This document shows, piece after piece, positions 27,560 through 56,200 of a stretch of 64,000 nucleotides of DNA. Both the position numbers and the translations under genes were made by a program. A model generated the notes under the pieces. It saw nothing but the letters and a program-made list of their open reading frames with translations, was not told the DNA's origin and did no database searches. Source of the stretch: Raillietiella orientalis (Eukaryota); contig JAYWIR010000012.1 in assembly GCA_036172245.1 (NCBI GenBank), positions 1,860,001-1,924,000 of the forward strand, written 5' to 3'. The stretch's first letter is position 1. Every line of letters starts with the position of its first letter.

Positions 27560-27569
27560 TTTTCTCTAG
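27560..27569 (+). promoter_or_regulatory. Unpaired 3' splice site upstream of MRPS33 (candidate trans-splice acceptor)
   Basis: TTTTCTCTAG ending 48 nt before the ATG, in the short RTK-MRPS33 gap. Confidence 0.45.
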
Positions 27570-27616
27570 GGATCTCAGTGGATTCACAGATGGCACACGT
27601 AGCCTAAAGGTACAAA

Positions 27617-28620: not shown

Positions 28621-28654
<34 letters not shown>

Positions 28655-29651: not shown

Positions 29652-29900
29652 CCGCTGCAGCGCTGTACCAAACCATACAAACCAATAAACTGTGTGAACC
29701 TACTACAAAAACTTTTCATTTTGTTAATCAGTTGGTGCATATACTTCCTTGAAATCATTATTCTGCGATTTCCTTATTGTTCACATCGCATTCATTTCGT
29801 ATGTATCTGCAGTAGTGAAACCAGTGATACAGCGCAGCATATACGGACGAAATCTTTGGTCGTGATGGATTTAGCAATTTCTTTGTAAAGTGGATAGGAA

Positions 29901-29910
29901 TTCTTCCCAG
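29901..29910 (+). promoter_or_regulatory. Candidate trans-splice acceptor upstream of trehalase
   Basis: TTCTTCCCAG 17 nt before ATG 29927; AATAAA of MRPS33 at 29684-29689. Confidence 0.45.
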
Positions 29911-29926
29911 AGGAGTTAACCGAAGC

Positions 29927-32900
29927 ATGGAAGCCGGTTTTCGTCTGTGTTTGTCAGTTCTGCTGAACTGGATGATGTCTTTGGCTACTTGCGAGACCAA
30001 CTTGCCGTGCGACAGGTATGAAAAATGTGCTTGGCACTCCCAATTGAAGGGGATCCCCACCTCGTGTGAATGTCGTAAGGGCTCAAAGTGTTTCGGAAAG
30101 TAAAAAGAGGCAATTCATTAATTAATGTAATTGGTGAGGTTGCGTGGTTTGTCGCCGTTGCCCTCTTGCGTAACTCTTTGAGCCTGTGTGTTCCAGCGAG
30201 ATCTTCTGTCACGGAAACCTGTTGCATGACGTTCAGATGGCCGCATTATTCGAAGACAGCAAGCATTTCGTGGACATGCCCCTGAAATTTGACCACGACG
30301 AGGTTCTCGAAAAGTACCAAGCATTAGTCAAAGCAAACAACGGCACTCCGCCTCGGGAGCAGATCCGGGAGTTTGTTGCCGCTAATTTTAAGGATCCGGG
30401 TCACGAATTGGAGAAGTGGGAACCTTCGGATTGGCAGGAGGAGTAAAGCGCTTTGTTTAATTTCGTTTTATTCCGATTTGATGTGGCAGCTGATGCGTTC
30501 CGCTCGCAGAAACCACGAATGCGTTGATTTCAAAATTTGGCTGTAAGATTTAGCTGGCAGCCTTTCCGATCTCACTCTCGCATAATGAAGCGTCGGTTCG
30601 AATTGGCCGTCATTCGTTTTTTTTGCTCAAAGATTATTTGGATCGACTTTAGCATGTGATCTCGGTTCCTGTCGTATCCGTACGGTGGCTGCTGAAAATT
30701 CACCTGGCCTTTGCATCACTTTTTATCATTACGGTTCATGAGACCAACCGCTACTTGGACTTCCCCCCCTTTCCCTTCTTGATGTGTAACCTCGTGTCTG
30801 AAGGTGCTCATTTGTTTGGGTACGGTCGCAAGAGCACGACATATGTAGCGTGCATTCCAACTTGTTCAGCACCTTTCCAATAAATTCATCTGAGGAATGG
30901 TGAGAAACAAGACCACCGATTCCAACGGCGTGAATGTTTCGATTTGGGAGCGCTCACGAGATTCGTTGAATAACATCTGCTGTTGCATAAGGGAGAACAC
31001 AGGCGGAGGCGATCTCCGAGCGGAGAGCTCTCAAAAACCCTTGCGAGTACGGAATCCTTCATTCATTGTGTAATGATAGGAAGGGAAAAAGGAAAAGATC
31101 TGAAGAAGAAAGTCTTTATTCCCGTTTCATAACCGATGAAAACTGAGCACGAGTAATTAAAGCGTGCACGGATCACGATTTGATCTTCTGGGAGTGCAGC
31201 TGTTTGTGCCCTCCCTCATCATCGGTTAAGGTCAGAAAAAGGAAACATCAATTTCAATTCGTTTTCTATTTTGGATTCTCTTTTTGAAACTGTTCGTGAT
31301 TTCATTTAATAAGGTGCATGGTTTGGAGCCCGAATTGTCCATTCAATTTTAGGCCGCGTACGTTCTGTTTTCAATCGCTTCTCATTTTAAATCTTTTTTT
31401 TTTTTTTGAACTTTTACGGTAAATTCACAAAGGATTTGTACGTATGTGTCATGTATTTCCTACCTGTGTGTGTGTGTGTGTGTGTTTTTTTTTTACGTGG
31501 ATTATGTCGTGCTTTAATGTCGATCTAGATGCAAACTTGGTGTTGCACCTCTTCGCATTCACGTAGAAAAAACTTCGTTGGCATAGCATATCACCCTTTT
31601 GGTTCACTTTACAACGAATTTGAAGATCTTCGTTCGGAAGGAATATTTGTTGTACTCAGCACTGAAAATATTGTCCATGGGCAAGTTCTGCATTATACAC
31701 TCTCTAGAATTGTAGGCGGTGCGGAAACCAGTTGCTTTGCTTTGCTCCAGAACTGGACCGCGGAACGGTGGACCGTGTATCCGTTTTGGTGCACGTACCG
31801 ATACAAAAGATCGTAAAAAAGAGGGTAGGGGGGAGGAAAAAGCATAGTTTTGAAGAAATCTATGTATTTCTCTGGTCAAGGGAGTACAATGCGCCCGTTG
31901 CAGTTTGCTCAATGCGTGCACGATCACTTTTCTTCAAGTTTTTCTCAGATGCCCTCAGATGTGTGGTTTGTCATCCCGCTGAAACCAATCGGTAGATCGA
32001 ACTGTTTCCGGACTGATGGAACTATCCGAGGGATCTTTCCTCCTCAGCAGTCCATGCTTCATTCCAGTCATTTGATTTGGTGGAAGTCTCTGCGAGCCTT
32101 TGGAATTTTTTCTAGGATCCGGCCGTTGGGAAAATGCGCTACATTGAGTCAGTTGCCCGCAGGATAATCACTCGATAATGGCCATGAGCGATAAATTCGT
32201 TTCATCGTCGTATTTAAGCGAAATTTCAAGTTGTAATGCGTAAATGTGAACTGTAACCGTGTAAACATATACATTTTTCAAACGTATGAACGGAGTGTAC
32301 AATTAATAGTATTGGAGATGAGAACCGTGCCTTGACTGCACGATGCACAACTCCAGAGTGTCCATGTAAATTTTGGAACAGTACAATAGCTGTTTGCGTC
32401 ACTATCCAGAATGTCTCTGAAGTCTTCAGGCAACCAAATCGTTTCCTTATGTGCTCATAGTAGTGAATTCGTGATTTCAGCGTAAAAGTCGCCCGTGACG
32501 TGTATCTCTCATAAAGGAAGTTTTATGGCACACTCAACGTTCAGTTGCTCTCTGCTTCTGCGTGCTTAAAATGGTTAATTACCCACCAAGTCCACATCTG
32601 TTTTTGCACTACAGAGCTAACGAAGAAGCAGTTTGCTAAGAAACGAGTTCTCATCAGTGCTTTCACTTTTGGTTCGTGTATTTTAAGGGGATTGCTCGCT
32701 CCGTGGGGATGGGAGCATCTCGATGTGCTTTCTGTTCCGAAGAGATGACCCCCAGGTTGTTTTGCACCAACGCTTTCTGCGGTCCAAACGAAGCGGTTGT
32801 TCTTCGGGGTCGCCGCGATCCCATTTCGCTTTCGAGGTGCTTTGAATTTCCCTCTCAAGCACCAGCAAGAAACCGGTGCAAGCCTTCTGCATTATAGGTG

Positions 32901-35900
32901 CCCGGGCAAGGAACTCGTGTTTCTACTTCATCCGTAGATCGGGTGTCTGCTGTCTCCGTTCACGTATCATTTGTGCTTTCTTGATTGGCGAAATTCTTTT
33001 TTTTTCTTTTCTTTTTACATTCATTCTGTGTTTGGAGAATAAGAATTCTCCTTGAGTTGATTCCGATTCCGATTGTCACGTTCAGCAATGCGAAATGATC
33101 CAGGTTCCTAGTGGCCACGTGGTCTACGAAGAGAGGTCGATCACAAATTAATCACTAGCACTGTGGTTGCCGACTTTGCAGTCTTCAAGATGGGTACCAT
33201 CTGATCAAAAACTGAAACATCACATTTGGATGCATTCTTTGTAGAACCCAAAATGTAGATTTGTGCTTGTTCGTTGCTAGTCATGTAGCAGAATTTCAGT
33301 CTGTTTCCCTTTTCCACTATTTGCATTTGGAGTGATGCTATCGAAGCTGTTGATAATCTTTACCCCACTTAAGAGAAATAAATTTGCATCGGAACCACTC
33401 AAAATGAGCTCTGTACCATCATCTGGGAGTTTGAGGCGGTATTATTTCTCTACCCTTATCAACGAAGAATGCTCGGAAATTCCCAAAATCTATATCAAAC
33501 TTACGAATCTACGTGCATAATATTAACATAACTAAGAAGATATTCATTTAGTATGAAGTGAGCTGCTGGAACATAGATATGGTGAATCGATATGGTTTGA
33601 TAAGTATTCTGCATATGTGGATGAAAGGGCTAAATGGGACTAAACAGACCCTCACGTCGTTTTTAAATAACAAGCGTTCCTATCGTGCTCTTCCCCCTTC
33701 ACATCTTGTATGCGTTCCTGGAGATATCTTTCGGAGCCTCAATCATCTTTTCCCGTGTGCGAAAGAGTTGGTCAAGTTCGGACACCTCGGTATCGAGGGT
33801 TCCAGCAGCGAAAACACAATACTCTCTTCTGGTTGCCACCGTGTTCTCGTTCGGTGCTAAACTGGAGGGATCTCATAACATGGTTACGTCTCATCAAAGG
33901 AACTCCTCAAAAGAACTCCTCATGTCGAGTTCACTTCTCTTTTTTGAGGGATGTTTAGCGGCCGGAGTAAAATTATGGACAGACCCTTCAAAAATCCTCC
34001 TACAATTATTCGGAGCGTATGTTCTGCGCGTGTGTTCTTTCCTAACATGCCATTTCCGAAATCTAAGACATCATCTTCCTGTTTTCGTCACCTCCCTCAT
34101 TTTATCCCAAATTTCCTTCGGAAACGATGCTCGGGAGAATTTCACTTCCTGTATAATTTCCTGTTCTAAGGGAAAGTTCCACGCAGGTTCGTGGATTTTG
34201 GATCTCAGGGCGAGTTACTTTGCCCTCAAGCTTTATTAGTTTGTATTTTAAAAGCTTTTGTAGGCCTAGGATTTAGATCTTTCGTGCGTTTTTCTTTTTG
34301 CCGTCTTTGTTTGTTTGTTTGTTTTTTTTTGTTCGCTCATTTTTTAAAGTGAACCACGAGACTCGAGCTTGCGAAGTAATCACAGAACTGTCAATGGTGA
34401 CTTCTGGTTTCCAATGCATTTCCGCCTTCATGTTGTTCGTGAATTCTGCAGGCTCCGACGCAAACTGTGCGAATTTGGGCGAAGACGCCCGGAAGAAAGG
34501 ATGTCACTAAATGAAGTGCACTCAACCGATTGCTCCGTGAAAATAAGTTAACATCTATGCCGGCGTGCATTCGCACAAAGATGCATCAACTGCATTTGGA
34601 AACCGGGAGATTTGTGTCTTTCACCGAAACAGCTGCAGAAGGATCGAGGATTAGGATGAACTCACGCTTCAAGGACTATCTGCCGCATTTCACTGCCAAT
34701 TTTCCCTCTTTTTTCGCATTCTTCATCTCCCGTGGTGCTTGCATGAAGTCAGACTTGCATCCGTGCAAACAGTCTTGCTGATCGTGAAGTATGCGGATTT
34801 GTTTTCATTCTTCCGATTTCTTTTTTCTAAAGTTTGGGACGTCTTTTGCAAGTGCGTTTTTCTTCTTCTTCCTTTCTTCATGTTCTGAAAAAGATCAGTC
34901 GGTGCGTCCTCATTGCACGGTGTTGCATCCACGAAATGGAGCTGTTCGCCGAAGTGATTCAGCGAACAGCTGAATTCTTGAATCGGAAAGTTTCTTCAGC
35001 TGCGCGTCTCATCTCCAAAACTCAGGGCGCCGGTAATTGCGAAAGCACATTTCTGGCGAAAGTGTGCTCTCGCGATGTGTGCGACGTTCGGAACAAAATA
35101 AGGTGAGGTAGCGAATTTCGAGCACGGACTGGTCGGAAGCGGAAGCCGCATTTGTTTTCACTGGGGGGTGCGGAGCCGCGGCCTTTTAACTCCCCCTCTG
35201 TCCAATCGGAGGTTTTATTTCTTTTTGAAGTCGTCGGCTCCTGTGTTTTCTTGGCCAGATCCTTCCCTCCTTCCGTCAACAAACAGCATCCACTCATCGT
35301 GGAAACGGCGCTTCAGATTACTGCGACGTTTGCCTACTTTCTGGAAAACCTCTAGGGACCCCGGATCCCTTACCCGTGCGGGATTACCGAATGTGGCTCT
35401 GTGCATTTCTTTTCTTTTCCTTTTTTTTGCTTCATCCACCTCCTGGCCCGATGGGAATAGTCGGTCGAAGCAGTTGCTAAACTGCACAGGTGTGTTCGGC
35501 AGTTCGGAATCTAGAATTCGATTAATTCTTCTCCATTTTGGTCACCAAAGCACTTAATACCCCTCGATGTTGCAGTGGTCTTCTTTAAGCGACATCCCGT
35601 GAATGCGAAAAGAAGCGGCCAGTTGCACTGGTTTCATTGCCTGTACAATCACCGAGGTGTACGCCCACAAAACGAAAACTGCTAAACACGCAGCAATAAG
35701 GGTTTGGGAGTCCTGGAAACATCCTGAGCGGCGGCCGCCCCTGCTTTTCGAATCGCGCCTGCCGGCAACTCCCACGTGTTTGCGTACCGTGGGGCCCAAG
35801 AACTTGCAAGTGCCGCTGCTAGTGTTCGGAACGTCTACTCTTGAGTGCGTGCAGAACACGAGAGCAGCATTAAAAGTGTCATTTCTGGCGTTCATTGCGC

Positions 35901-38900
35901 AAATGTACGTACGTCTCGAGCTCCTGACGTTTCCGGCTTCAGGATTCGTTTACGGTTACTATTTGGGGGAGATCCCCCTCGATTCGCACCCATCGCCCAA
36001 TGGAGCCAGGCAGTAGGGGCGAACAGCACGTTGGGAAGCAAGAGCGAGCGCTCGTCCGGTAATCGATGAAGCAAGGCACGGTGTTCGACACAGGAGTGTT
36101 TTCGAGGTTTCGTGTATTCAGGGAGAAGTAGGTTGATTGCGCTGTATGGACCCATACGGTGTTCCGACTCCGTGGCGACGTTCTGATGATGTGAATGTTG
36201 CATTTAGTCATTAGCTAAGTTCATTGACCTCAGCAGAGTGACGATAAGGGGAGCCTAGCAACAACTGATAGCAGCGTTCAATAATAATAACGCAGGGCGA
36301 AACGAGCTCGAGATACCGAGTGTGTGGCGCAAATTACGAAACCTGGGTGCGAAATGGTGGTCCGGAACAGAAAGCACCCAAACGAGCCAACATTGGACCG
36401 ATGCAGTCAATGGTGTGCTGGACGTTCAAGAGCTCCAGTATGCTTTCCGACAAACTTAGGTGCACACAAATCGGGGTGTGCTTGCAGCCGAAGTAGGTGG
36501 GGTCGGATTGTATGACGAGCACTGGTGGGGCTCGCACTTTTGCCTAGCTACTCTTAGGGTAAGCTGTGCATGCGCGTGCTCTCCGTGTGGACGATCGCAC
36601 GCAGGATACAGCAAGGCGAGCCGAGCAGGCGCCAGCTGCTAGGCCCCCATCTCGCAGGCGGTACACTTTCTCTGGGAGTGTATCGTCTGTGCTTTGAGTC
36701 GGCGCTGAGGTTTTCGGCGTTGGCATCTCGTTTGCACCACCATCTCCCCCTAGGTTTGCCATAGACCTCGAGCTCGGTTGTTGTTGTTATTGAAAGCGTC
36801 CGCCTACCTTTTGCCACTCTCGTCGACGTCTCCCTGGCCGCCAAGGAAACGAGTTGGGACTTCGCCCCGGGTGGCAGCTTCGGACTATGCTTCGGGAGGG
36901 CGTAGGCGGCGTTGCTTTCGCATTCGTGGGTCCCCCTCACCATTACTGAAACGTTCGCTGTTTGCGAGGACTTGTGGGGCAGGGAAGGAGGTTCTCCTGC
37001 CTTGGCGCGCAAGTCTTCGTGGTCTAGTGATCTTGGTGTGGTTGTACCAAGAAACTGGAATTGAAAGTGATTTCTCCTTCCTTGCGTGTAGTCAAGCTAA
37101 CTGTCTGTCGATCTGAGGTATAAATCGCAACAGCGCGGATGGCGGGAGTCGGATGAAGCTCTGCGTTGGGGATGTTTGCGGTCATGAGGGTAGATGAAGG
37201 CAGTGCAGCGGAAAGGGGGGGGGGGACTGAAACGATCCAAGAGCGTTAGCCGACAGGGCTCAGTGTATAGAGGGGTGTCTGAACGTGCGGTCGGTTGCTG
37301 TGCGCACACCATATCCACCGCATGGAACCCATACCAGAACAACCTGCCCGAAGGACGTTAGTCGGCGTGTTTTCAATACGAGGTGCTGGCCAGGGAAGGG
37401 CCGGTCTTTAGGGGTAGCGGGGCGGTACTCGACTAGGAAACCGAAACCGAGGGAAGCTTTCTCTGGAGGAGCACGCAGCACTCCTTCCGGGCCGGGCCGT
37501 TTCCAGGAGTGATCGTGCACTTCCAGTGCGGAAAGCAGCGCAGACCGAAATGAAGGGGCCAAAAGAAGGAAAGTGAAGGCGCCGTGTGTGGAGTGGCAAC
37601 CCGAGAGCATGGTGGTTACCTCTGCCCCTCCTGTCGACCCTCGCACTTGCGGGTTCAATCCTTTTTTTTTTTTTTTTCAGTCACAGCGAACCAATACTTG
37701 CACACCCTTGGGCTGGACGAGCGGGAGGTTACCGTGGGAGATGCTGTGTGTGGTGCACGCCATGCAAGGCAAGAGAGCTAGCTGTTTGAGTCTGGCATGG
37801 CGATTTCGCCCCGACATTTTTGGAACGCCGCCGGGGGTCCTTAGTCACCCGGCCGATCCGTTTGTGCCCCCTTCCGCCTCATTCCGTTTATGGAATGGCG
37901 TCCTCACGTGTGAGCTGCTCTTCTGGCTGGTTGCCGTGGAGAACTCTTTTCTACACGCAAACTGCGCGAAAGATCAGAAGGTTGCCTCCCTCGTAAGAAC
38001 AGCTGCTCAGTTGCGCGTGCTTCCAATTCGTGGCTTCCGGCATGACACCTGCCATTGCGTTGGAATTCACCAAGACCTCGCGAACCAGTGGACGCTAACG
38101 AGGGATCGGACTTCGGATGATATCCTCGGCAGCAGCTGTGAGTGCGGCGCTCGCTGCGGGCTCGTGCTCTCCTGGTCACACCCCCTGCCTTTCGCGACCT
38201 TGGGAAAAGGCTGTGCTGGCTGGCCGGTGGACCTTCCGTTGCTTTGTCTCTAAGCGGTGCGGGAAGAAGCAACACACTTCCTCCCAAGCTGCCCCGAAAC
38301 TGCTTGTCTTTCTACGTTCAAGTGGTGACCTTGCCCGAGATGCCTATATACGAATGCACCTGCCTCACCGTCAGGATGCAAGTGTCATGGTCGCCTGTGC
38401 CATCTCGTTTCGTGAGCTTTTCTTTCGAGGCCGCCGTCGCGCATCAAGGCCGTGGCTTGTTTCTCTGGGGCTCTCGCGTGTCTTGGAGTCGTCATCCATT
38501 TCTCCCCTCTTTCTCCCTCATCCGCTCTTACCGGAAGTTTTCCCATGCAGCTTCCTCGTCCTCACACCCGGGGAAATAGATGCTCAGGGCCAAGAATTCG
38601 AAGTACACCTGCAAGGACAGCTCCCACGTGTCTCACATCACTTCCACTTTTCATCCACGCTTGTGCACAGCTTACGTACGCGTACAGACAGGGAACATCT
38701 CCCGCACCTAACCATTGACTTTTTCCCATACTTGGCGGCGGCAGTGGTGAAAAAAAATTCCATGCTGCGGAAACCCCGCTCCCAGCGCTTTAATCCATGT
38801 TGAACAAGACAGAAGTGGAGCTTTCCATCGTAAGAGGTGGCGGAAGGCGTTTCTTCCCAAGCTCCGTTCAGTCCCAGTCGGTGGTGCAGAAACTTCCACT

Positions 38901-41900
38901 GTGGGAATAAGCGCCGCTCAAGAGGCGCTGCGGGCTTCGCCTCATATCAAAGCCGGCAGCCTTTCAGCTGACAGGCTATCCTCTCCGGATTGCAGGATGT
39001 GCCATAGCTTGCCGTGTCCCCTGTCACTCCTCGACAAGGCGCATGTGGAGACCTCAGCGGTGGCGTCCGTACCGAGTCAGCCACGCCCGTTCACACTCGC
39101 CACCTGCGAGACCACCTTTTCCTCACAAGCTCAGTGTTCCTGCTTTCTTCGCTTCCAGCTCTGTTTATTTCTAAGAACCAGCTTCGTCAAGGTTGTCAAG
39201 GAGGAGGGTTACGTTGCTAAGAGCAAACGTGACCCTCCTCCTAAGAAACGTGTGGGTGCGGCACGCTTGGAATGGACTCGATGCACCAATAGGACGAGGA
39301 AAAGGGCTTCCCTGGTTGCACAGCAACACTGTCTTCCGTTTGGCGAGCCCTGCAAATTATCGTGAACGGGAGCCGCCGCCAGCTGCTTTGCGCATGCTGC
39401 TTCGGAGAAAATGGGGTCCCGGGGGGATGCAAAGGTCCGTAACCGATCGTTGGGGTTAATCGTTCGCTCTCGACATTTCTGGATGCTTGAAGTCGGCGCC
39501 ACGATGAAGATACCATCGGTAGCATCGTAAGGCGTAGTAGGGCTACTAAGTAGCATAGGAGGCTGGGTGCCCGGGATGCTTCGCTCCTTCTCCAGACCGC
39601 AGAAACTGGGAAGCAGGAGCGAAGGACGCACGACTTTGCTGGGGCGGAACAGCCAGACCGTGCTGTCTTCTCTGATGCAGTGAATTTGCGGTCCTCACTG
39701 AACTCGTATCTGTGGAAACCCTCTTCTTCATCTCTTCGGAAGTCAATTCGAAGCTTCTTTGGAGGAGGGATGGCGCGAAACGAAGCGAACCACAGAAAGC
39801 AAAAGCGAAATTCCAAGTTTGCATCCCTCCGCTGCTCTGTTCCAACATGTGCGCGTTGTTTTTAATGTATCTGGTGTTTCTCCTTTCGCCTTTTCACGGG
39901 AAAACAACGACGGACATCTGCGATCGAAGTCTTTATTGAAGTCATTCGCAGTAGACTGTATATTATTTATGGGATAATTGTGATGGGATCTTGGAAGTCC
40001 TCAGCGCTGTTGGCCTTTGCGTCAGTTTGTTGCCTGGCGAATGATCGTCGACTGTGCTTATTTGGTGTCGTAGGTCGTTTTTCGGATTCTGCTTTCTGAA
40101 GTGGAAGCTGAATCCTTAATTCGTTAGTTCCTTCGATCTTGCATCCCCTCAAATGGAATTATTCTTCTGCCACTCTCATTTGTGACCTGCCTTTTCCATC
40201 AAGTTGCGCGAAAGTGTCCACGAACCGCTATTATGAAAACTTTGAGCCATGAATCAGTGCAGCTCTTCTGTCGAGAATTGTCTGAAACTTCCCCATCCCC
40301 ATTTAGGTAGCTCTTGTAGCTCTCAGTATTCGATCCAATAGTATTAAATTGTGTTCTGTGTTTGTACGAAGGAATCGTAAAAGTGGATGCTGCCTTGGGA
40401 TTGGATGGGCTATACAGAAATGATATAGAAACATGAGCATGTTACTTGGATCCGCACTTTTGTCTAATTACGGGACGCTGTAAGTGTTCCTTGCTTATTT
40501 GGTCTCGTTGCAAATCTGTGTTCAGGTCCGGCTTGACCTTGCGTAATTTCCGTTTCCTTAAGTAATTGCTTTTATTCCTGAACTCTTCATTTCCTGACTG
40601 CGGTTCGTTTGCCATTCTGAATCTGTTTTGGAAATTCTTGATGGCTTGACTTTTGGATTTACTGAATTGAATTGAGGGTGCATTCGCCCCCCGAAATAAC
40701 CGTTTTAGGTTTCGTCGGATAGGACGTCGGATTTTGTTTTCTGGCTTCCGGATTCTGTGGTTCTTATCGCACGCTGGGCAGGACGTTTTCGGGTCGTTCG
40801 TTCGCCTCCCCCTTCTTTTCATCGGAAGCATGGCTCGGTGGCCGGGCAAAGCACCACCCATGGAAGGAAAGGTTACGAAAAAACCACACACTCCCTTCAA
40901 AAGTGGCGACACCAGCTTTATGAGATTCCTCACAAGAGCCCCTTTGATTCCGAAGAGAATGTAGATACGGGAAGATCGTTGGAATTAGTTTTATCTGAGC
41001 CGTGCGGAGGTTTAGTTACAAGCAATAGCGAGCACCTTTGAAATGCAAACCGTAGGGACGTCTTTGCACAAGTTCCTGACACTGCATAGGTCACTTGCTA
41101 AAAAGAGATGCTTTCAGATTTCCGCTTTTGCGAAATATATCCGATGACAGATTGAAACAGTGGGCGAAGGAGTTGCACCATTTTTGGAAGGAATTGGGGC
41201 GCAAGGTATCTTCGGCTGTGCAGGAAAATCCGAAAAGATATTCGCAGATCTATGTGGAGAATCCCATTATTGTTCCCGGGGGTCGATTCCGAGAGTTCTA
41301 TTACTGGTAACAGCACTCTTTTGTTTCCGATGTGGTTATCAGCATCTTCAGGGACTCATACTGGATCGTGAAAGGGTTGCTGATTTCCAACATGACCCAG
41401 ACCGTGAAAGGCATGGTGCAGAACTTAATCGATATGGTTAAGAGATATGGAATGGTTCCCAATGGGGGAAGAATTTACTACACGCGGCGGTCGCAGCCAC
41501 CGTTCCTCATCCCCATGATGAAGGTGTATGTCGAGAGAACCAACGACCTAACATTTCTCAAGTACGATTGCAAATTAAAATGTTTGCAAATACTGAAGTT
41601 CGTTCCACATGATAGGGAGAATATCAATTATCTTCAACAAGAATACATGTTTTGGAGGAACAATCGTTCGGTGACCATAAATCATCCGAAATTTGGAGAA
41701 CTCATTGCTTCACGGTATCATGTTGATGTCACCGTGCCGCGACCTGAGTCCTACAAGGAAGATTTCATGTTGGCCGCCAAGGCTGGTTCATCAATCAACG
41801 CTTCGAGATTAATGGCTGACATCGCTGCCGCAGCAGAATCTGGTTGGGACTTTTCCACTCGTTGGTTTTGGCGTAATGGCACGAATAAAGGCAAGGAAAG

Positions 41901-42810
41901 ATAATAAATGCGCCAAGCATATGGATTGCATTTGCAGGAAAATTAATGAATACGTGGACCGAAGCCATTATCCCAGTTGACCTGAATAGTTTGATGTGCT
42001 ACAACGCCAGAACTATGGCTGACTTTTACTCTTTACTGGGAATGCCGGAGTCTGAAAGTCAGTTCCGCAGCTTTGCGAAAGCATACGATAGAACGCTAAA
42101 TGTGCTGCTCTGGAGCGAAGAAGACGGTGTATGGCTGGATTATGATTTGATACTGAAGGTAAGATGAATGCCCGATCAAAAAGACGTGTACGTAACTCGA
42201 TTTCCATAGGAGCGCCGTAATTACTTTTATGTTTCGAATCTGTTTCCGTTGTGGACGCAGTGTTACGGCAGCACACGCAACAGGCGACAAATCGCGGATC
42301 GTGTGCTCCAGTACCTGAAAACAAACAAAGATGCAGCACGAGCATTGGAGTACATTGGTGGCGTACCTACGTCCGTAGAGGACAGTGGAGAACAGTGGGA
42401 TTTTCCCAACACATGGCCCCCCTTGCAACACTTGGTAATAGTGGGGCTTGATATGTTAGGTACAGAGGAATCCAAAAGTTTGGCTCTCGATCTAGCCAAG
42501 AAATGGATTGATAATAATTATAAGACGTATAAGGAAACAGGCAACATGTACGAAAAGGTATGGGCACCTTGACTGTGAGGATGATATAATAGTTCATCCA
42601 CAGTATGATGCCACCAAACCAGGACCAGGTAGTGGTGGAGAATATCATGTCCAGCTGGGATATGGCTGGACGAATGCGATTGTTTTAGATTTATTAGATC
42701 ATTATAAGGATAAGCTGTCATTGGGTCCTGATGGTTCTCAGGCCATTGTAAAACCAACTCTGATTTTGATAGCAGCACAAATGATTTTTTGTTGGGGATA
42801 CTATTATTGA
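29927..42810 (+). CDS. TREH: Trehalase (GH37) with signal peptide and hydrophobic C-terminus
   Basis: Exons 29927-30015, 30197-30442, 41118-41306, 41352-41561, 41616-41890, 41938-42158, 42210-42557, 42604-42810. Signatures PGGRFREFYYWDSY, RSQPP, RPESY, AESGWDFS, QWDFPNTWPPLQ, GGEY..QLGYGWTN. Confidence 0.96.
30443..41117 (+). other. 10.7 kb trehalase intron 2 with paired ends
   Basis: 30475-30489/41076-41092, 30527-30534/41037-41044, 30564-30572/40973-40984, ~30785-30823/~40838-40877. Confidence 0.7.
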
Positions 42811-42881
42811 GGTATTCCTAAAATTAGCTTTGCATCAACAAATGAATAGCTTAATAAAGGGAAAAAAAAAAAAAAGACTAT

Positions 42882-44684
42882 TTACAATGCCATCATTGTA
42901 TTTGGAAATGTCAACTCCTGGTTGTGATGGCATAATGCCAGTACATATTTACCAACATATTTTGATGGGAAGTGTGTATGGAAATGCTGAGAGCATTGTG
43001 CATATCCATAGTCCTTCCACAATTTCCAACCTGTCTGCTGGAGTAAAACATCAAACATGATGATAACACCTGGTAGAGGATCCAGAGAGAACTTCTTTTT
43101 CACCCATGCAGATGGATTACTGTAGAAATGCTCTGCTTCATCCATGTAGTCTGGAGTTTGCAACAAGTTGGGCTCACAGGTCACAAATTGCATTGGGACA
43201 GGCACATGTACATGACTATTTTAATTAACATTTTGCAAAAGCTTAATTTACCTGTAGAGAGGAGTTGAATGGCAAGGCATAAGTATCAAGACACTGGAAA
43301 TATTTGGCTGGTGGCGTACAAATTGCATAACATCAAGTGTTCCACGTTGATGGACTAAGCCACTGTACAAGCCAAGAATAGTGTTGAACAACAAAGTACT
43401 CCTCACAAAGCACATCTTTAATTTTCTGTTTATCTCTCTCTTCTCAGACAATTCTGCGAGATATGCTCCACAAGCAACCATGAGAAATGGAAATAATGGC
43501 AGTAAAAATCGAAACTCCTTGTGTGGAACAAAACTAAATCACATCATAATTCAAACGAAGAAAAAAAAAAAAAGAATCTAACCTGAGTAGCACAACATTT
43601 GCGATGCAAGGAAGGAGTATCCCATATGTCAACATGCTCTTCCATGCTTTATACAAAAGGAATGGCAAAATGAACACACAGGAAGATAAGACAACAGGCA
43701 AACCATGTGTCACATACCACAGGAAAGGATGTGTTCCATAATTTGCACTCCATCCAGATAAAATGTTCAAGAAAAAGAACTGAATGCAACTAAATGTGAT
43801 TGTGCCATAAAAGCAGGAATCCAAGAGCACAGCAATTAGACCTGTTATCACACTAGGTACCATACAGCATCAAGTCACTGTGATATCATGTAGTTTGCCT
43901 TACCCAATAATCAAAGAGATCAGTACAGATTTCTGTTTGGAACTATGCTTCAATATCCACAGCACCCATAATATGCTAAGTGCAAGACCACCAGTAGGAC
44001 GTAACAGGAAAGAAAACGAAATCAAAAAGGGAAGCAAATACTCATCTAATATAAGCAGGATAATACATGGTTTTCACATAACAATTACCATAAACTGTAT
44101 CTCGTGCATATGAATACAAAGCTGCTGAGTGCAGCAGCAGTTCAATGTTCTGAACTAAAGTGCGAGGTGTGCAGTAAAATAAGAACCATGATGATAAACA
44201 ACAAAAAGTGGTCCAATTAGCTGCAGAGATACTAAACAGCTTGTAAGCACTGAATATCATAAAATAATCACAGACAGCTGCACAAATGCAGTGCACTAAA
44301 CGGGGAACATGAATCTGAAAGTCAAATGTCAGTTTAAGACTGCCAAGGAAACTTTCTGCAACAATACCAGCATAAAAGGGAAATCCAAATGTAACAGTTT
44401 CAATAAAAAAAATATTGCAACATAAGGTACCAAAGTAAGGGTGCTTCTTAGTCCGACCTTCCATTCCCAAGTTAGATAGCCATAACTATAAACACAGAAA
44501 AATTAACATAGCAACAAATGTTGGTTTCATACCCAAAAACTACATGATGTGCTACTTCCAATGTCTGCCAATGCTCATCAGGTACGAATGCAGTTTGGAT
44601 GAAAATGAGGGGCAGCAATCGAAATAATAAAATGCAAAAACAAAAAAACTTCACATTTATTTTACTGTATTTTTCAAAAGACAT
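42882..44684 (-). CDS. PIGB: GPI mannosyltransferase 3 (PIG-B, GT22)
   Basis: Exons 44684-44533, 44485-44368, 44314-44089, 44045-43904, 43852-43583, 43533-43252, 43215-42882. Motifs FVPDEHWQTLEVAH, GYLTWEW, RPT, YGTHP, HKEFRFLLP, HQRG, MPCHSTPLYSHVH. Confidence 0.95.
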
Positions 44685-45319
44685 TAGCACTTGGAACGTT
44701 TTGCCGTCCTTCTAAAATATTTTTCATCACTAGGAGTCCACAGTGTATCACTTGCAACTAACAAGCGCTTTACACCATTATATATTAAATGAAGGCAATC
44801 TAAACGCGGAAGACTTGCTTGAAATAATGGAAAGATGGTTTCTGCTTCACCAGTAGCATTACCTTTTAAAATAAGTGCCAGACAATAAACAACCTGATGA
44901 AATGATATAACCTCATCGATCACTATATCACGGACTGAATCGTGAGGAAAGAATCGAGTTGACTTCCTGCCACTGGTAAATGTTGTTGTTATCTGAATTC
45001 CTAAGCCAGATATAATCAAACATGATTCTTTCTTTACCATGGAACACCATTTAAAACATACTAGTAACAAGAATACTGAGATCATAGGTAACAGAAATCC
45101 AAGATCATATCTTGGTATCATATACAAGTATACCATGAAAGCAACGAAAAAGCCCATGAACCAATGAGATATTTTAAAAGACGGTCCATGAATCGTGAAC
45201 TGTGATGAAACTAGGTGAGGGTGTGAAGGACTATCACACAAAAAACAATCAACTACTGATAGCTTAACAAGGCTTCCCTTCAGATTTTTGAAAATTAACT
45301 CCTTTTTCCTAATAGTCAT
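44684..45319 (-). CDS. PIGH: GPI-GlcNAc transferase subunit H (PIG-H), intronless, 211 aa
   Basis: Two TM segments, then ESCLIISGLGIQITT, VRDIVIDEVI, VVYCLALIL, PLFQASLPRLDCLHLIY; ATG at 45319. Confidence 0.92.
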   Translation of the reverse strand: MTIRKKELIFKNLKGSLVKLSVVDCFLCDSPSHPHLVSSQFTIHGPSFKISHWFMGFFVAFMVYLYMIPRYDLGFLLPMISVFLLLVCFKWCSMVKKESCLIISGLGIQITTTFTSGRKSTRFFPHDSVRDIVIDEVISFHQVVYCLALILKGNATGEAETIFPLFQASLPRLDCLHLIYNGVKRLLVASDTLWTPSDEKYFRRTAKRSKC

Positions 45320-45369
45320 CACGCGTTAAAGAATTCACTTTTCGCAACACCGTCGCACCAAAATTCGTT

Positions 45370-45500
45370 ATTCACGCTGCACTCCATCAACATTGCAACA
45401 GCTCATAATTGGGATGTTATTCAACTGCAGAGCAAGTCTGCACGGCACGCACTCTTCAAGGCAACTCAAGCTTATCTTCAACTGTGGGATTAGTGTACAC
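45370..45500 (+). mobile_element. Possible gag relic upstream of PIG-H
   Basis: IATAHNWD..SARHALFKATQAYLQLW resembles the N-terminal part of retrotransposon gag. Confidence 0.25.
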
Positions 45501-47468
45501 GTGAAACTCCACGTGCACCAACGCAACGTTTCCTCTTGGGTTGAAGTGAAAAAACCAACAACAGCAACAGGAACCCTACAAGTCCCTACAGTACAAATGA
45601 AAAATTCACTGTTCCTACAGCATTCTCGACACACATAAGTATGCTTAGCAAATAAAATTCCGAAAACTCTCCCTACCATCCGAAATTATTTGAAATCCTA
45701 TTTGGCTGCCACTCAGTTTTGCCACATCACGAGCCATTCCTCCACAATTTTCCCTAGCCGAGACGTGTTTTTAAGGCAGCGTGAGTTCAGGAAACGCGAA
45801 TCAAAAGATGCATTGACTGGAGAATTAAATTAATAGTGACATAGGCAAACTAATTTAATAACTAATTCCTGCGGAAAGTAAATGCCGCCAGAGTTTTATA
45901 TCTTTTGATTCAAACAGGTATTCATTCAACTGAAAAGGGGATGGCTAGGTTAGATAAAACAAAAACAAAAATAGCTGTAGTGGACTCAGATATTCATCAC
46001 TGTAAAGGTTTGAGAGAATGTAGAAAACATAGCTGTTAAGAGAAGGAAAATTTTAAAACTGAGAATGATTAGGCATAAAGTATCATATCCCATCATTAAT
46101 GAACATATCCATGAAGACAGCGAAGCTAAAAACACACCCGATGATAGAATAGATAACATACTTTATACATGCATGAATATGAACGCTATTGACATGAAAT
46201 TTCCAAATATAGTGTACTACCCAAATATAATTTCCGTGGAATTTTTTTCTGTGAGGATGAGTTTATTTGATCTACCAGTACAAGAGATTCCCAGTAGGGA
46301 AAGTATACCGATATCATAAGGAGTGCAGAATTGAAAAAAGGAAGCCGATCTTTGTACAGATCACTTATATGAAAGAGATGAAATACCCTTAAAAAAAAAA
46401 GAAAAGAAAATCACTTTTGATGGCTTCTGTTACATGTATAATAATAAGAATGACTAACAATTAAAAATTCTTCATTACTGCAAAAACTACAGTCTGGTTG
46501 TGAACCGTTCATTCCATTATAATAAGGCAGATTTGTTAAGGAAAAAAGTAGCTTTATATTTACTGAAATTTTGTATCCAGATTCTTGAAACCCCATCAAT
46601 GCACGTTGATCAAACTTCAAAAAAAAGGTACTGTAATATTTAATTACGTGTTCGAATAATGTGCCTTTACATTTGTGAATTCTGGATCCCTTGAGAACTC
46701 TTAAATAGCTAGCACAGTAATAAAGACTACATTATTATTTATTTTTATTTATTTCTATTGTTTTCAAGAATATAAATGGGGACACATGTATTCATAAATA
46801 CATGATGGTGAATCAAGCATTTACAATAAACTAGAAATTCCCTACCTACAAGAAAAAATTCCATACATATGTTTGTTTGCGCATCGAATTTCGTATGCGA
46901 TTTCAGATAAAAAATCATACATTAATGTCACACTTATTTTAGAATGATGAAGATGGATTTAAATTGTAATCTTTAAAATGAATTTTCACAAAAAAACTTG
47001 ATGAAAGGAGCCTTGTAAATCACATTCACTGTGAAATTGAAACTCTGAAAACGATGCCAAAAGTGAAGATAGTCTCTTGATAGAAGTTTCTTGCAACTGC
47101 TTATCAACAACATCCAGCATTTTAAACACTCATAGAAAAAGGATGAGAGAAGCACGGAGGTGGGCTGGATTAGTTTATGAATCTCAAAAGTGTTTTCAAC
47201 GAAATGTTTTTGTTGTATAAATGACGTGGATGTAAATTAACGTAGCTCTGAAAAATTAAGTATGGTAACTCTGCTTTCACATTGGGGGAGCAGAATTTGG
47301 AATTGCAGAAAGTGATGCAAGGAAGGAAATTATACAGAATAAGAAAATAGAAGTAATGTGTGAAAAAAATTATGTAAAAATTCTAATTAGTTAAGGTGCA
47401 ACAATAAAATGAAGATGCTTTTGGCCTTTTGACACGAGCCATTGAAAGTAAAACTAACTGCAATCAGA

Positions 47469-50260
<2,792 letters not shown>

Positions 50261-53200
50261 AGGACGTAACTAGAAGTTGTAATTTTTGCCGGAGGACGGT
50301 TACCGAATAAATTATTGAATTACATCTACTTACGAATAAATAAAGTGAAAGTGGTGGGCACTGTGTTTTCACGTAGGTACGTGCCTGCGGATGATTACGG
50401 ATTCCGGCTGGCGGAATGCGTGTTGTGCCGTCCTTGCTCCGTGACCATGGAAACGTCCGGCGGTTCCGAGAGGCGCGTGACGGGCGGGACGGGTCGGCCG
50501 GAGCACGCGGGTGGGAAGCGGGACGGCTCCAAACGGGATCGGAGGAGGAGGACGGGCTTGGCGGGTTCACCGTGAGGGCTGGTGGCCCTCGCCGAAGCCC
50601 CCGATCCGGAAAGCGGGGCAGCAGCAGCAGAAGACCGAATGCCCAGACGAAGGAAGAGTGCTGGGCCCCGAAGAGGCGAACGGGTTTTCTGCCGACGGGC
50701 CCTCTCGCGGCGCCCCTTTTTTTCTTCCAGATCCCTCGTTCCCCGGCTCTTCCTCAGTCAAGTCTTTCGTGTTCGCTGCGCCGATCCCCTTCGATCAACG
50801 GGTAACAGCACTGCTCCGCGCGTGAGGAGTGCGAATCAGCCGATCTTCTCACTGTGGGTGTTGCCGTGGACGAGCGCATCCATGGTGCAGCGGAAGATCC
50901 ACGGATACCCTGTCCGTTGCGTATGAATGAATGGCCGTTGCTTGCGGCGAAACCTGGAAGACCTCTGAGCGTTTGTTCGTTAACCATTTCCGTGGATAAA
51001 ATGCGCCCTACGGGCGAAAGCAATTCCCGCACACGGGATGGTAAGCCACTCCCGGATGCCAGGAATCCCAAACGAGGGCTCACGCTGCAGAAGGATGCGG
51101 GGTCAGCTTATCTTCGGGAACAGTCGACCGTGAATAAGGAATGACGACGGCAAAGTGCTTGTGCGTACGGCGCAGAGCAACGTGTTCGGATTCAGGAGAT
51201 GCTGGATATGCAAGGAACTCTGGACTGCAGATTCCAGGAGGTTTTGCTGTGAGAGCGGAATCGACAAAATGGCAATCCTTGGCAGCACATGTAATCATGG
51301 ATGAGCATTTGGCACATCCGGGTGGAAGAATGTCTGCTGTGCCGGTTTTCTCGAGCATGCAGCGCGATCCGATTCCACCCAAATGCTCCTCGGCTGTGGA
51401 GGAAGCCGAGCAGGCCGCCACCGCTTCGTGTTCCCCATCTGGACGGATGGCAAGACGCAAACATCGAAGACCGATCGGATGTGCAAAGCAGCTCGGCGAA
51501 AAAGCAGGACGATGACGTGTTGCATTCTAAAGGATGCCTCGAGAGGCAGACTCGGATGGATTGTGCCGGGCAGCCGACGCCGGCGGAATCCTTCCGTATC
51601 GCTTCCTTTCAAAGCCGCCGAGGCTTCCGGAAAAGAACAGAGATGGCACCCCCCTCCCTGCCAACACCCTTGCGGACGGTCAACATGCGTGGGCGAACGT
51701 GGTAGCAGCAGCCACTGCTGCTGTCGCGTGGTGGGACTGATTTCTTGGGACGCGCAACTCTTCGTGACGAGGGGCGTTGGTGCCTCGGCGTTGCAAAAGA
51801 GCGCACACTCCGCCGTCCTCCGCTTTGCTGCCGGCGGTGAAAAAAACAACAACAAAAACAGACAAATCTTGAGTGTAGTACGGAGGTGCATCCTGTTGGC
51901 ATCCGTGCCACCCACGCGCGTGAACTGGAAAAAAAAAAAAAAAATATGTAAAAAATTATGTTGGGTGCTTCGTCTTTGTACACGGTTGCCACATCGTTCG
52001 CGGTTTCTTGTCTTGAAATTCCCGACGCACCATGCATGCAACGGGTTGATCCAGGTGCCATGTCGAGAAACCGGGGCATCGACCACTGGCGTGGGAACGT
52101 GTCCGTATCCGCGGTGACCGCAATCGGGAATGCTTTCTGGGGTCGTGGCTGCAGACGCTGCGGAAAAACGTGGTCCCTTGGCCCTTGCTAGGCATTCGAA
52201 AGAAAGCTTGGGACACAGAAACGGGCGCCAAGGGTTGCAGCTTTGCGTAGTAAGACATCAGTCGGCAAATTACGCTCTGCCGGAAATATCTATGGGAGCG
52301 TATCTTCTTCCCTCGCGTCAGTGTTAATGGGAGCGTTTTCGTACGCGGAAGCACCAGAAAAAGGCGTGATGGCGAGAAACGTGCCGCGCTGACCATTCGT
52401 CTACTGCTATGCACATTCTGGGTGCCGCCGGAAAATGTACGGAGCGGAGGGAGCGCGGGTGTCTCGTAAAGTATTTTTTTTTTTCTTTTTTACAAATCAA
52501 GGTCTCTTGCTTCTCTGCTTCAATTCATCAGCTGGAACCGAGTTCCAACTTGGACCCCAAGAGTGCCTGTCCCTTTTTTTTTGGTTCTTGTTTGTTTGTT
52601 TGTTTTTCTTCTTCGCGTTCTATGAAATTTGAGGATTCCATCGAGCAGTTTCTTTTACTTGAAGGGATTTGGTCAACGAAAACGCTCGCTTGTGTTTCCT
52701 TGAAAAGGGAGCGGGGAGATCGGTTGCTAGGAGTCGTAGTAGTTGGTCCGCACGGTGATAGGCGTCGCTCCATGTGTGATTGCATGTAAGTAGTCCATCC
52801 CCTGGCTATTTAATTAAGGGCGGCACCTGGTATACGAAAAGTGGTTTGGTTTGCCATCTTGGAATTTATGTACGCAAACCAATCGATCCATCAGTGGGAT
52901 GCTGGAAAACAGTCACAAGTCCGACTAGTGGTGCGATGCAATTTTCCTAAAACGGACAGCACTTGCACACTTGCAAGATTTCTTGCGGGCGATCTGCCGG
53001 GATGATGATCGCCGACCTCCCCAATCCGAAGAAGCTATTCATCAGAACTTGCCGAGACCAAAGTGACCTCTGCTGAACCCTGTACGCTACGCGTTCGTGC
53101 GGACCGCAAACACGCAGGACGGGGAGCGAGAAAGTGCGTGCGTAGATCGGTGATGCGCACGCGGGAACGAATCTTCCCCGGGCCCCTCCGGGGTTGTTTT

Positions 53201-56200
53201 CCCCCAGCGCGTTTCGGGACACTCCCCGAGGGTGGACGTTTCCCCGAAGCGGCAATCCGCCTGTCCAAGGTGGTGGTGGCGTGGAAAATTCTGCGAGCGG
53301 CGCGCGCCTTGCATGCAAGGAAGGCGGTGCTCACGCGATTCGCGTGCGTTGGGAGCAGCCGGGAATCCCGGATGTGCGTTTGCCACGAAGTGGACTGCGA
53401 AGACTTTCCTCCGTTGCGGTGGCAAGCGGATGCCTTTTTTGCCCCTCCCCCTCTCTCTTTTTCTGTTGGGAAGGAGGAGAGGGAGGGGGAGAGGAGGAAG
53501 GGAAGGGGAGGGGAGGGGAAAAAAAAAAAAAAAAACCGCTCCAAAGATGCGAAACCGCATACGAAAGCGCGCCAAGCGGGATGCATATCTACCGGAGCAA
53601 ACGAATGTGGGCATCAGAAGATACACAATCGGCAGTAAGAGCTCGATTTCATCTCGAGCGCGAATCATTTTCGTTAATGGTGAGGCATAAAAAGCGATTA
53701 ATTGACCTCGATAGTGGAATCTTAATTATTCGATCTGCTGCATTTGAAAATCAAATTACGCACTGCGGTTGCCAAGTAACGAACTTTTTGCAAATGTTTG
53801 CTTTTAACCACTTTTGCTGTCGGCTTAGCCGTTGTAGCAGCGCCCTGGCGGCAAGCGCCGGAACACTGCGCGATGAAGCCCTCTTTAGTAATCGAAGTTA
53901 AGGCGGTAATTACCAGTCGAGGAAGATTAAAAGGAAATCACTGATGATGCATGACAGTGACCTCCGCATTCCTAAATGAGCGCCCCTCCTATTAGAATGG
54001 CCCCGATTCTTCGGCATCGTCGTCGTTCGCGTCGCCGAGTGCCGTATCGTGCGTCCTGTGCTCCGCTTTTTTTTTCCTTCGAAAGGTCATGGGCGAGTTG
54101 GTTTACGGGACCCTCCGTTGCCCTTATCAGGGGCTGCTGTTGCTTCTTCACAAGTAGGGAGTTGGTCAGCTGGCGGAAGGGGGAACCGCGCGAGTGGGGG
54201 AGCAGCATCCCGAGGACCGGGTTCGAGCCGGTAGAAGTTGAGCGGAAACGAACCGTCGTTCCAGGGAAGGCGTGGCCGCGGGATGCAGCAGAAACATTTG
54301 GTCTTCCACGATCCGCCTCCTGTGCCACAGCGGATGGCCGGAAAGGCAAGCAAACGCTGCAGCGCATGCGTCGGCGGACGGTGGCTCTCTCCGCAAGCAT
54401 CCGACGCTGACGCAGTGTGCGGAGGAGGGGAGAGGTGGTGGTGGTCGGGGGGGGGGGGGAGTGCACGGGAACGAGTAGACGCGTGCCGAATCTCTTTCGA
54501 TCCGGCTGGTCGTTGCAGCAACGACCGGTCTCTCGTGCTTCCTCCAGCTTCGCCGTTGCTGGACGCCTCCTCGTGCAGAATGCTACCGGCAGAGCTGACC
54601 GAACCCCTGCAGCAACCGGGTCGCGCCGGTAGTGTTGTGATCGTGCGGTGTCGGGAAGCAGGCGACACTCAGGAAGCAGTCCACGTTTCGAATCGCAGTG
54701 GGGCTGGGCCGAACCTGCCGCCCGTCCAAAACGGCCCTTTCGATCTGTCGCGCGGCCTGACGGTTTTAGAGGGTGGCGTAACCTCGATGTGGTCGGCAGT
54801 TCAGCCTCACGCGTTTTCCCGAGGAGCCGCGCAGCGTCCGAAAACAATCAAAACGGTCGCCACTAGCCGGGAGCGGTCGCACTGTTCCCTGTCCCCGAGA
54901 CCTGCGCTAACCGCACCGGCCGTGCCACCTCATGAAACGGCAGAGGTTTCGACGAAATGATCGGAAGGAAGAGAGGCGGGCGGCGATTCGAGGGAACCCG
55001 TTTCTTCCCTATTCTTCGCCCAAGAAAGCCACGTGCTCCGGAGCTCTTGCTTGCCTCCTGCCGATGGAGCACAAATCCACCCGCTTCGGTGTCTTGGGGC
55101 GCTTCGGGACGCACTTCTTTCGGCGATCTCCACGAAGCGTAAAACGCCTCGGGAAGGAAGAACGCAGCAGCAGATGAGGAGGGCAAGCGGCGTTGCAGGC
55201 GAGTCCGCCACCCCCGTCTTAAGAAAATCGGCCAACGAACGGACCTTGCGTGACGCGGCGAGTGATTCCTTGAGTTTGTCCCCCCTCCCCTTTCCCCCCA
55301 AGTCTCCAGCATCGCTACAAGGGACCTCGGAAGGCCCCCCCGCGTTCGCTCCCAGTCTGCGTGGACGAGTTCACTTGCGCGCGCGTGCGCACTACGGGAC
55401 TTCCGTCCTCCTTCGACTGTGGCGATTTTTCACGCACTGAATCTTCGTGCAGCGGTCACCATGCGGCTGCTGCAACATGCAAGGCTCTGGCGGCTCGTAA
55501 CGTAACAGCTGCCTGTGCACCTGTAACAGCCGCTCCGTAGGTGCGGCACACACCACGCCTTGGCCTGGGCGCCGTTTTCAGCCCCGAAAATGCTTCCAGT
55601 GAATTCCTGTGCCGGCTGATTCGGGACCGTTTCAATGCCGGTCGCTTGTCGTCGGTCTTTTCGGATTTCCGGACCCGCATTTCTTCTGCTGGTGTGCCTG
55701 GGTTCGTTTCGGTCGCTCCGGATCTGTGCAGAGGGTTCCTGCCTGTGGGAATAAAAGAGTTCGCTGAAATGAAGGGCAGCGGCTTACAGCGGCTGTCTAA
55801 TTTTCTTCTCACGGAGATTGCCAACACGCGGCACGGATTAGGTATTGGAATGCCATCCGGTTGCCAGGACCGTGAAGTACAGAGAGATGCACACCTCTTC
55901 CGCTGCATGCCCTGCTACCTCTAATCACGATGGTGGGATAGTTCTCTCTCTCCCTCTCTCTCTCTTTTTGTTTGCCATGCAACGCATTCTCTGTTTAGAT
56001 TCGTCGAAAGTCCGTGCCAGCAAGGATGATGACAAATGATCCAAGTTTTAATTCCTGTTGATTTAGAAGCACTCGGAGACGAAGTAAGTGCCGTCGGCGC
56101 GCATGCATCAGCCTTAAGTTGACGTGCAGTTCGCGTCGGAAAAAACTTCGTGGAGCGCGGATGGGGTGAATCAGGGGAAACGGGCGCCGTAAAGAGCGGG

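Follow-up and report, generated by a model that had tools for sequence, protein, structure and literature searches.

How are two proteins made from two genes whose coding sequences share a base? The question is raised by a locus in a 64,000-nucleotide stretch of the Raillietiella orientalis assembly GCA_036172245.1 (contig JAYWIR010000012.1, positions 1,860,001 to 1,924,000), hereafter the window, in whose own coordinates all positions are given. Here a gene read as PIG-H and a gene read as PIG-B lie on the minus strand, the former upstream of the latter, and direct reading of that strand across their junction gives ...AAG TGC TAA TG TCT. That the first gene's stop codon overlaps the second gene's start codon is read from the sequence itself and is not a statistical inference, and the single shared base claimed in a preliminary description of this DNA is borne out by this reading. 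To our knowledge, the stop codon of one coding sequence almost never shares bases with the start codon of the next in nuclear animal genes. The two genes act in the same pathway, with PIG-H serving the first step and PIG-B a later step of glycosylphosphatidylinositol (GPI) anchor synthesis. The elements of the junction are as follows:

44684-45319, minus strand: PIG-H coding sequence, intronless, 211 codons plus the stop codon TAA (44686-44684), from the list of open reading frames (ORFs), Pfam, homologues and AlphaFold2.
44682-44686, minus strand: TAATG, formed by the PIG-H stop TAA (44686-44684) and the PIG-B start ATG (44684-44682), with base 44684 common to both.
42882-44684, minus strand: glycosyltransferase family 22 (GT22) mannosyltransferase gene read as PIG-B, with 7 exons, 507 codons and the stop codon TAA at 42884-42882.
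44684-44533, 44485-44368, 44314-44089, 44045-43904, 43852-43583, 43533-43252 and 43215-42882, minus strand: the seven exons of the PIG-B gene model.
44656-44661, minus strand: AATAAA, putative polyadenylation (poly(A)) signal of PIG-H, 23 nt after the PIG-H stop and inside PIG-B exon 1 (codons K-I-N).

Our preferred answer, to which we assign a probability of roughly 0.55, is that PIG-H and PIG-B are separately translated from two overlapping mRNAs, all of whose ends and processing steps we infer. The PIG-H mRNA would begin upstream of 45319 and would be cleaved and polyadenylated some 15-30 nt past the AATAAA at 44661-44656, inside PIG-B exon 1, while the PIG-B mRNA would have a capped 5' end of its own within the PIG-H coding sequence. 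On the PIG-B mRNA the same AATAAA would be separated from the cap by only tens of nucleotides and would precede the intron-1 donor by ~125 nt, and would be poorly used because of these two positions. If a single primary transcript is common to both genes, each transcript would yield only one of the two mRNAs. Neither the overlapping separate mRNAs nor the AATAAA 23 nt after the PIG-H stop had been brought up in the preliminary description.

This answer starts from the observation that PIG-H and PIG-B are two complete GPI-anchor pathway genes, set head to tail in a packing that is both real and unusual. The PIG-H ORF matches the whole of the Pfam domain PF10181 (E = 9.4e-19, profile positions 1-67 of 67). 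An exhaustive profile search yielded 520 homologues at E <= 1e-3, the best of which (E = 8.8e-24) covers query residues 6-192 uninterrupted, and the best 150 of the 520 are 103-364 amino acids (aa) long; the gene is therefore intronless, as previously described, and of normal size. When the query is aligned with the 120 homologues that head the list of 150, homology continues to residue about 191, with 113 of the 120 reaching residue 188 or further and one stopping at or before residue 182. The AlphaFold2 model computed from this alignment (mean predicted local distance difference test score (pLDDT) 90.8, predicted template modelling score 0.82) has a single helix at residues 173-191 (block pLDDT 98 and 93), followed by 20 poorly predicted final residues (pLDDT 64, 55 and 44). 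Judged by alignment and model, the unspliced PIG-H is the whole canonical protein and its tail is coding. No PIG-H relative of near length emerged from a word-indexed protein search, in which 0 of 106 candidates reached E <= 0.001. None of the 423 pattern matches from a metagenome scan with the protein was confirmed, and a PDB search found no PIG-H relative. A 12-codon ATG...TAA mini-ORF is located at 45368-45406 on the minus strand, 49-87 nt upstream of the PIG-H start.

The PIG-B model is an open coding sequence of 1,524 nt, interrupted by six GT..AG introns of 47, 53, 43, 51, 49 and 36 nt, the number that had been described. Four of the six PIG-B ORF pieces tested match the Pfam family Glyco_transf_22 (PF03901) and together span profile positions 3-410 of 414, with exons 1, 3 (exon 2 lies in the same ORF), 5 and 6 matching positions 3-41, 57-150, 216-301 and 325-410, respectively. 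On these matches, the downstream gene is a member of GT22, the Alg9-like mannosyltransferases. Its assignment to the PIG-B/GPI10 subfamily, which adds the third GPI mannose, is putative and is based on the motif PDE[HY]WQxLEV...GYLTWEW, which we take to be the PIG-B N-terminal motif. The earlier identifications of the two genes thus hold, that of PIG-B with its subfamily taken from this motif. The only PDB match for PIG-B is 9s6t_A, annotated as 'Mannosyltransferase' (E = 0.004), and exon 3 has no match there; our literature search returned nothing on 9S6T or on PIGB cryo-electron microscopy. A search with exon 1 among longer proteins gave 3 candidates and no relative.

The PIG-B start codon is in its natural place. 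Exon 1 offers the ATG at 44684 as its sole in-frame ATG, TAG 44714-44712 blocks the frame nine codons 5' of it, the Pfam GT22 match begins at residue 15, and the distance to the PDE motif is normal: among 73 metagenomic loci with the motif PDE[YH]WQ, of which 72 match the PIG-B model by tblastn (GT22), the nearest upstream methionine is mostly 17-61 residues away, and in the window this distance is 34. PIG-B therefore looks like a complete, separate protein. The context of its AUG is weak (C at -3, T at +4). The sixth intron (43216-43251, minus strand) is only 36 nt long, which is very short by the standards of animal spliceosomal introns; the frame continues across the join, with Pfam-matched sequence on both sides.

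What ends the PIG-H mRNA? A T/GT-rich stretch lies directly 3' of the AATAAA at 44656-44661, and the first AATAAA after the stop codon is found at +23 in PIG-H, at +43 in trehalase and at +34 in MRPS33, two other genes of the window; no AATAAA is found within 150 nt after the stops of PIG-B and of a ROR-type receptor tyrosine kinase gene. The signal at +23, with a spacing as short as in trehalase and MRPS33 and a low chance expectation (quantified below), suggests a PIG-H mRNA with a short 3' untranslated region that terminates in PIG-B exon 1. We count the tight packing of the neighbourhood, described below, as further support for overlapping mRNAs. For the lemming (lmg) locus of Drosophila, the published account reports, from rapid amplification of cDNA ends, a 5' end 107 nt upstream of ORF2 and a 3' end 56 nt after ORF1, plus a dicistronic form, with the ORFs 92 nt apart (PMC3372440). 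Overlapping ends beside a dicistronic form thus have an arthropod precedent.

For the 5' end of the PIG-B mRNA we consider two origins. It may come from an internal transcription start inside the PIG-H ORF, which we regard as a tentative possibility. Somewhat more doubtfully, an AG such as that at 44712 may act as a 3' splice site, accepting either a spliced leader (SL) from a co-transcript or an upstream non-coding leader exon (the doubt refers to the two variants together). Splicing at this site had also been proposed in the preliminary description, which set three modes of expression side by side (trans-splicing, reinitiation on a dicistronic mRNA and a 62-nt cis intron) and chose none. The site is:

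44712-44719, minus strand: TATTTTAG, candidate 3' splice site, whose TAG (44714-44712) is the last PIG-B-frame stop before the ATG.

The position of TATTTTAG is as described: it ends at 44712, with 27 nt between its end and the PIG-B ATG and only 9 codons open 5' of the ATG. We scored splice sites with a matrix built from the 12 true introns of PIG-B and trehalase, whose donors score -0.3 to 9.6 when each is left out in turn. The acceptor of TATTTTAG scores 1.4, and in the non-coding DNA at 45400-49700 a site with a score of 1.4 or more is found in the preceding 60 nt for 69-81% of positions. Since equally good AG sites are this frequent, the acceptor is no evidence for trans-splicing, which keeps the modest probability given above. 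A broader sign of trans-splicing, pyrimidine-rich AGs upstream of the trehalase, MRPS33 and PIG-B ATGs, was dropped: the sites of trehalase and MRPS33 are the stronger ones, yet scores like theirs occur at 26-64% of background positions. No SL RNA was found by Rfam within the window at gathering or E <= 1 thresholds, a result of little weight given that SL genes usually lie elsewhere in the genome, and the window-wide matches at E <= 1 were chance matches on low-complexity DNA. The short or absent spacers expected of SL operons are present, with -1 nt at the PIG-H/PIG-B junction and 239 and 276 nt at two other junctions of the window.

Four points weigh against two overlapping mRNAs. AATAAA is not depleted in exons (2 occurrences in 5,079 nt against 2.4 expected), so that a signal in this position, taken as a 45-nt window, would arise by chance with a probability of ~0.02, or about 2%. 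Candidates for an internal promoter in PIG-H were found by eye only, namely TATATAAT at 44784-44777 and TTAGTT at 44761-44756, and are unremarkable for DNA so rich in AT. As stated, the acceptor at 44712 is no better than chance. Finally, a 2021 paper (PMC7986045) knew of no reports of operons from the copepods and amphipods, the arthropods in which trans-splicing is known, and a spliced leader is hypothetical here.

The PIG-H tail bears directly on another of the earlier proposals, the 62-nt cis intron, in which two further features are involved:

44712-44773, minus strand: candidate 62-nt GT..AG interval, removal of which would place PIG-H codon 182 in one frame with 9 linker codons and PIG-B.
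44747-44773, minus strand: PIG-H codons 183-191, with which the candidate intron opens and which encode the second half of the C-terminal helix, from the alignment and AlphaFold2.

Alternative cis-splicing of 44773-44712 would create a fusion of PIG-H(1-182), a 9-residue linker and PIG-B that carries PIG-B activity, while the unspliced mRNA would give PIG-H. The coordinates and the frame of this intron are as described; the donor is in phase 0, the acceptor coincides with the last PIG-B-frame stop, and at 62 nt it comes close in size to the 11 short introns modelled (36-54 nt), although it exceeds all of them. The interval, which opens with GTAAAG from 44773, has a donor score of 3.0 and an acceptor score of 1.4, and its donor carries T at -1, a position held by G in 10 and by A in 2 of the 12 true donors. 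The homologues also argue against splicing. The first 15 nt of the interval encode residues 183-187, whose columns are filled in 116-119 of the 120 homologues with the pattern hydrophobic (I/L/C/V), Q/K/H/R, variable, I/L/V and L; the V-K-R-L-L of the window conforms, fitting all four constrained columns, while the K-D-G-K-T of the spliced form fits none. Splicing would also halve the helix at 173-191, predicted at pLDDT 93-98.

The donor had been reported as nearly identical to a trehalase donor, and the identity is in fact complete. The 11-mer GTAAAGCGCTT occurs exactly twice in the window, at 30443-30453 on the plus strand, where it is the true donor of the 10,675-nt trehalase intron, and at 44763-44773 on the minus strand, the candidate donor; its palindromic core, AAGCGCTT, is likewise found in the window only at these two places. 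As the other true donors lack the CGCTT extension, the identity has no splicing rationale, and we take it as a coincidence of roughly 1-2%. The interval as a whole is matched by chance pairs: 4,689 nt of confident exons contain 387 GT..AG pairs of 36-65 nt, of which 17 score no worse; the candidate itself and a 44-nt sibling are among the 17, so that 15 decoys are left. On the other side, from these 15 decoy pairs per 4,689 nt, a phase-correct and equally good decoy would end in a 30-nt window with a chance of ~3%, a rough estimate that favours the intron. The sibling, a 44-nt variant with the same donor and the acceptor CTCCTAG at 44730, was rejected because it leads to an immediate stop.

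Fused relatives were not found either. None of the best 150 of the 520 PIG-H homologues exceeds 364 aa, 25 Atlas clusters hold PIG-H only, and 0 of the 73 PIG-B metagenomic loci have a PIG-H-like ORF within 2 kb (tblastn with 151 queries; profile at E <= 10), with at least 800 nt of upstream DNA in 52 of them and at least 1,500 nt in 40, and with a positive control at 1.6e-63. Overall, an in-frame join exists, though the interval is not free of constraint and these searches found no relative of the fusion. The conserved helix and the decoys disfavour the 62-nt intron as the main route; we consider the fusion unlikely, and the intron as at most a minor or alternative isoform.

Could a single dicistronic mRNA serve both genes, as the remaining earlier proposal holds? 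Ribosomes ending PIG-H at the UAA would reinitiate at the overlapping AUG, or would enter internally, and the output of PIG-B would be coupled to the translation of PIG-H. The weak context of the PIG-B AUG would be irrelevant for coupled reinitiation. UGGGA is motif 1 of the termination upstream ribosomal binding site (TURBS), and no UGGGA is present on the coding strand across 44687-45319, the nearest TGGGA on the minus strand lying at 44465-44469 and 46088-46092. The 201 nt around the junction fold no better than shuffled sequences (z = -0.10; 85 of 200 shuffles as good), and the AATAAA at +23 would truncate a dicistronic mRNA. The geometry is that of known cases, since the same UAAUG is used in influenza B M1/BM2, caliciviruses and a hypovirus (PMC10275272, PMC3035654, PMC2699510), and Drosophila does have dicistronic mRNAs (PMC3372440). 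In every well-studied case covered by the review PMC10275272, reinitiation after a long ORF relies on a tethering element with complementarity to 18S rRNA; the same review describes the requirements in cellular mRNAs as unknown.

Scanning past PIG-H is not an option. A dicistronic mRNA read by leaky scanning requires an AUG-poor first ORF, and the 638 nt bounded by, and including, the two start codons contain 16 ATGs, hence 14 between the two, 5 of them in frame, which excludes leaky scanning. In Drosophila, AUGs in the first ORF attenuate translation of the second (PMC3372440). The stop/start spacing on which the earlier reinitiation model was built is thus present, while the UGGGA motif and the RNA structure are not. 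We consider a true dicistronic mRNA improbable, and its specific form, termination-coupled reinitiation at UAAUG without a TURBS-like tether, slightly more so. If it were true, it would be a case of stop-start coupling after a 211-codon ORF in a cellular animal gene, fixing the ratio of two GPI-anchor enzymes.

Two further ways of joining the frames were weighed. A programmed -1 frameshift was rejected, as the final ten codons of PIG-H contain no X XXY YYZ heptamer. If the assembly is wrong by one base between 44711 and 44687, possibly in an A4 run, the error would hide a natural PIG-H/PIG-B fusion ORF: one extra base in this 25-nt stretch would align both frames, and homopolymer indels are a common assembly error. 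Against it, the A run near the junction is only four bases long, zero frameshifts are needed in the ~5.1 kb of coding sequence modelled for five genes of the window, a normally placed ATG of its own opens the PIG-B frame, and no relative of fusion size is present among the best 150 of the 520 PIG-H homologues or in the 25 Atlas clusters. We regard such an error as very improbable.

Several known systems resemble parts of this arrangement. The human PIGY/PYURF bicistronic mRNA places a GPI-pathway gene on one mRNA with another ORF, the partner not being a GPI gene. At the cholinergic locus, the intronless VAChT gene sits within ChAT intron 1, ahead of the first coding exon and under one promoter, with no overlap between the coding regions. 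In C. elegans, the rare SL1-type operons are without an intercistronic region. This is also true of most operons of Ciona, where, according to PMC7986045, co-directional genes have zero spacing and formation of the upstream 3' end and the downstream 5' end compete at one place. The present junction differs from the Ciona and C. elegans types in that the coding sequences themselves overlap and the spliced leader is only hypothetical; owing to the overlap, any acceptor must be in the upstream ORF and the upstream poly(A) signal in the downstream ORF.

The termination-reinitiation systems, which comprise influenza B M1/BM2, caliciviruses, the hypovirus CHV1 and the SART1 retrotransposon (PMC10275272), share the UAAUG and a second ORF that is out of frame. 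Unlike these systems, the present junction has no UGGGA motif complementary to 18S rRNA and no stable upstream structure, and it joins cellular genes of 211 and 507 codons rather than ending in a short viral 3' ORF. The lmgA/lmgB pair of Drosophila lemming shares the arthropod setting and an intronless upstream ORF, and stoned and snapin are cited alongside it in PMC3372440. At lmg, dicistronic and overlapping monocistronic RNAs are mixed, the spacer is 92 nt and the second ORF is not detectably translated (PMC3372440), whereas here such RNAs are proposals, the spacer measures -1 nt, and the downstream gene, which has six introns, encodes a conserved enzyme. Among the matches listed in our literature search, no PIG-H/PIG-B gene pair or operon was described.

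The surroundings of the pair are compact. A row of three unrelated co-directional genes occupies 23008-42810 on the plus strand and converges on PIG-B:

23008-27377, plus strand: ROR-type receptor tyrosine kinase, with Ig (23008-23232), Fz (24594-24893), Kringle (24887-25219) and kinase (26583-27377) domains.
27617-29650, plus strand: MRPS33, with exons 27617-27859 and 29557-29650.
29927-42810, plus strand: trehalase, a tblastn gene model, with its stop codon at 42808-42810.
42853-42858, plus strand: AATAAA 3' of the trehalase stop.

The spacers are 239 nt between ROR and MRPS33, 276 nt between MRPS33 and trehalase and 71 nt between the convergent stops of trehalase and PIG-B, and introns in the neighbourhood come in two kinds, tiny ones of 36-54 nt and long ones of 179 nt, 1.7 kb and 10.7 kb. 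The 3' ends of trehalase and PIG-B probably overlap in antisense, because the trehalase AATAAA puts cleavage at or inside the end of the PIG-B coding sequence. A 47-nt trehalase intron (41891-41937, plus strand) uses a GC donor (GCAAGG...TTTGCAG), with no GT at that junction. Elsewhere in the window, Pfam matches indicate two exons of a Protein C10 gene (PF14974) at 16716-17038 on the minus strand and an exon matching GNAT acetyltransferases at 49817-50014 on the plus strand; no Pfam match falls in the ~4.5 kb that separate PIG-H from the GNAT exon. The window is an extreme mosaic of GC content, with blocks of 55-68% GC (1-13000, 36000-40000 and 50000-64000) and of 31-45% GC (14000-36000 and 40000-50000). 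All recognisable genes of the window are in the AT-rich blocks. Of the long ORFs in the GC-rich blocks, 15 were tested and none has a Pfam match, and the GC-rich block at 36-40 kb sits in the 10.7-kb trehalase intron. A window-wide scan found no tandem repeats.

In what kind of animal does this junction occur? Four of the ten looked-up clusters of the best PIG-H matches were named, as sea spiders, horseshoe crabs and hagfish, and among the 10 clusters the closest named relatives are sea spiders and horseshoe crabs; the closest Atlas cluster to PIG-H is from Arthropoda. Trehalase relatives show at most 53% identity among the best 120 of 2,527. In a quick trehalase tree of 36 matches picked from the 120 listed plus the window sequence, with the other 84 left out, the window falls on a long branch within a pancrustacean clade (Shimodaira-Hasegawa-like approximate likelihood ratio test support 94), and no starred clade contains it. 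By these PIG-H relatives, the Atlas cluster and the trehalase tree, the genome groups with arthropods and is that of an arthropod-like animal that has no close relatives in the databases.

Whichever mechanism applies, this arrangement imposes coupling or competition on the PIG-H and PIG-B mRNAs, because the PIG-H poly(A) signal lies inside the PIG-B coding sequence and any 5' end of a PIG-B mRNA lies inside the PIG-H coding sequence. If this lineage trans-splices, PIG-H and PIG-B would be an operon-type pair in an arthropod-like animal, a group in which operons are unreported. If it does not, the junction would be a clean natural case of overlapping tandem transcription units or of non-viral reinitiation.

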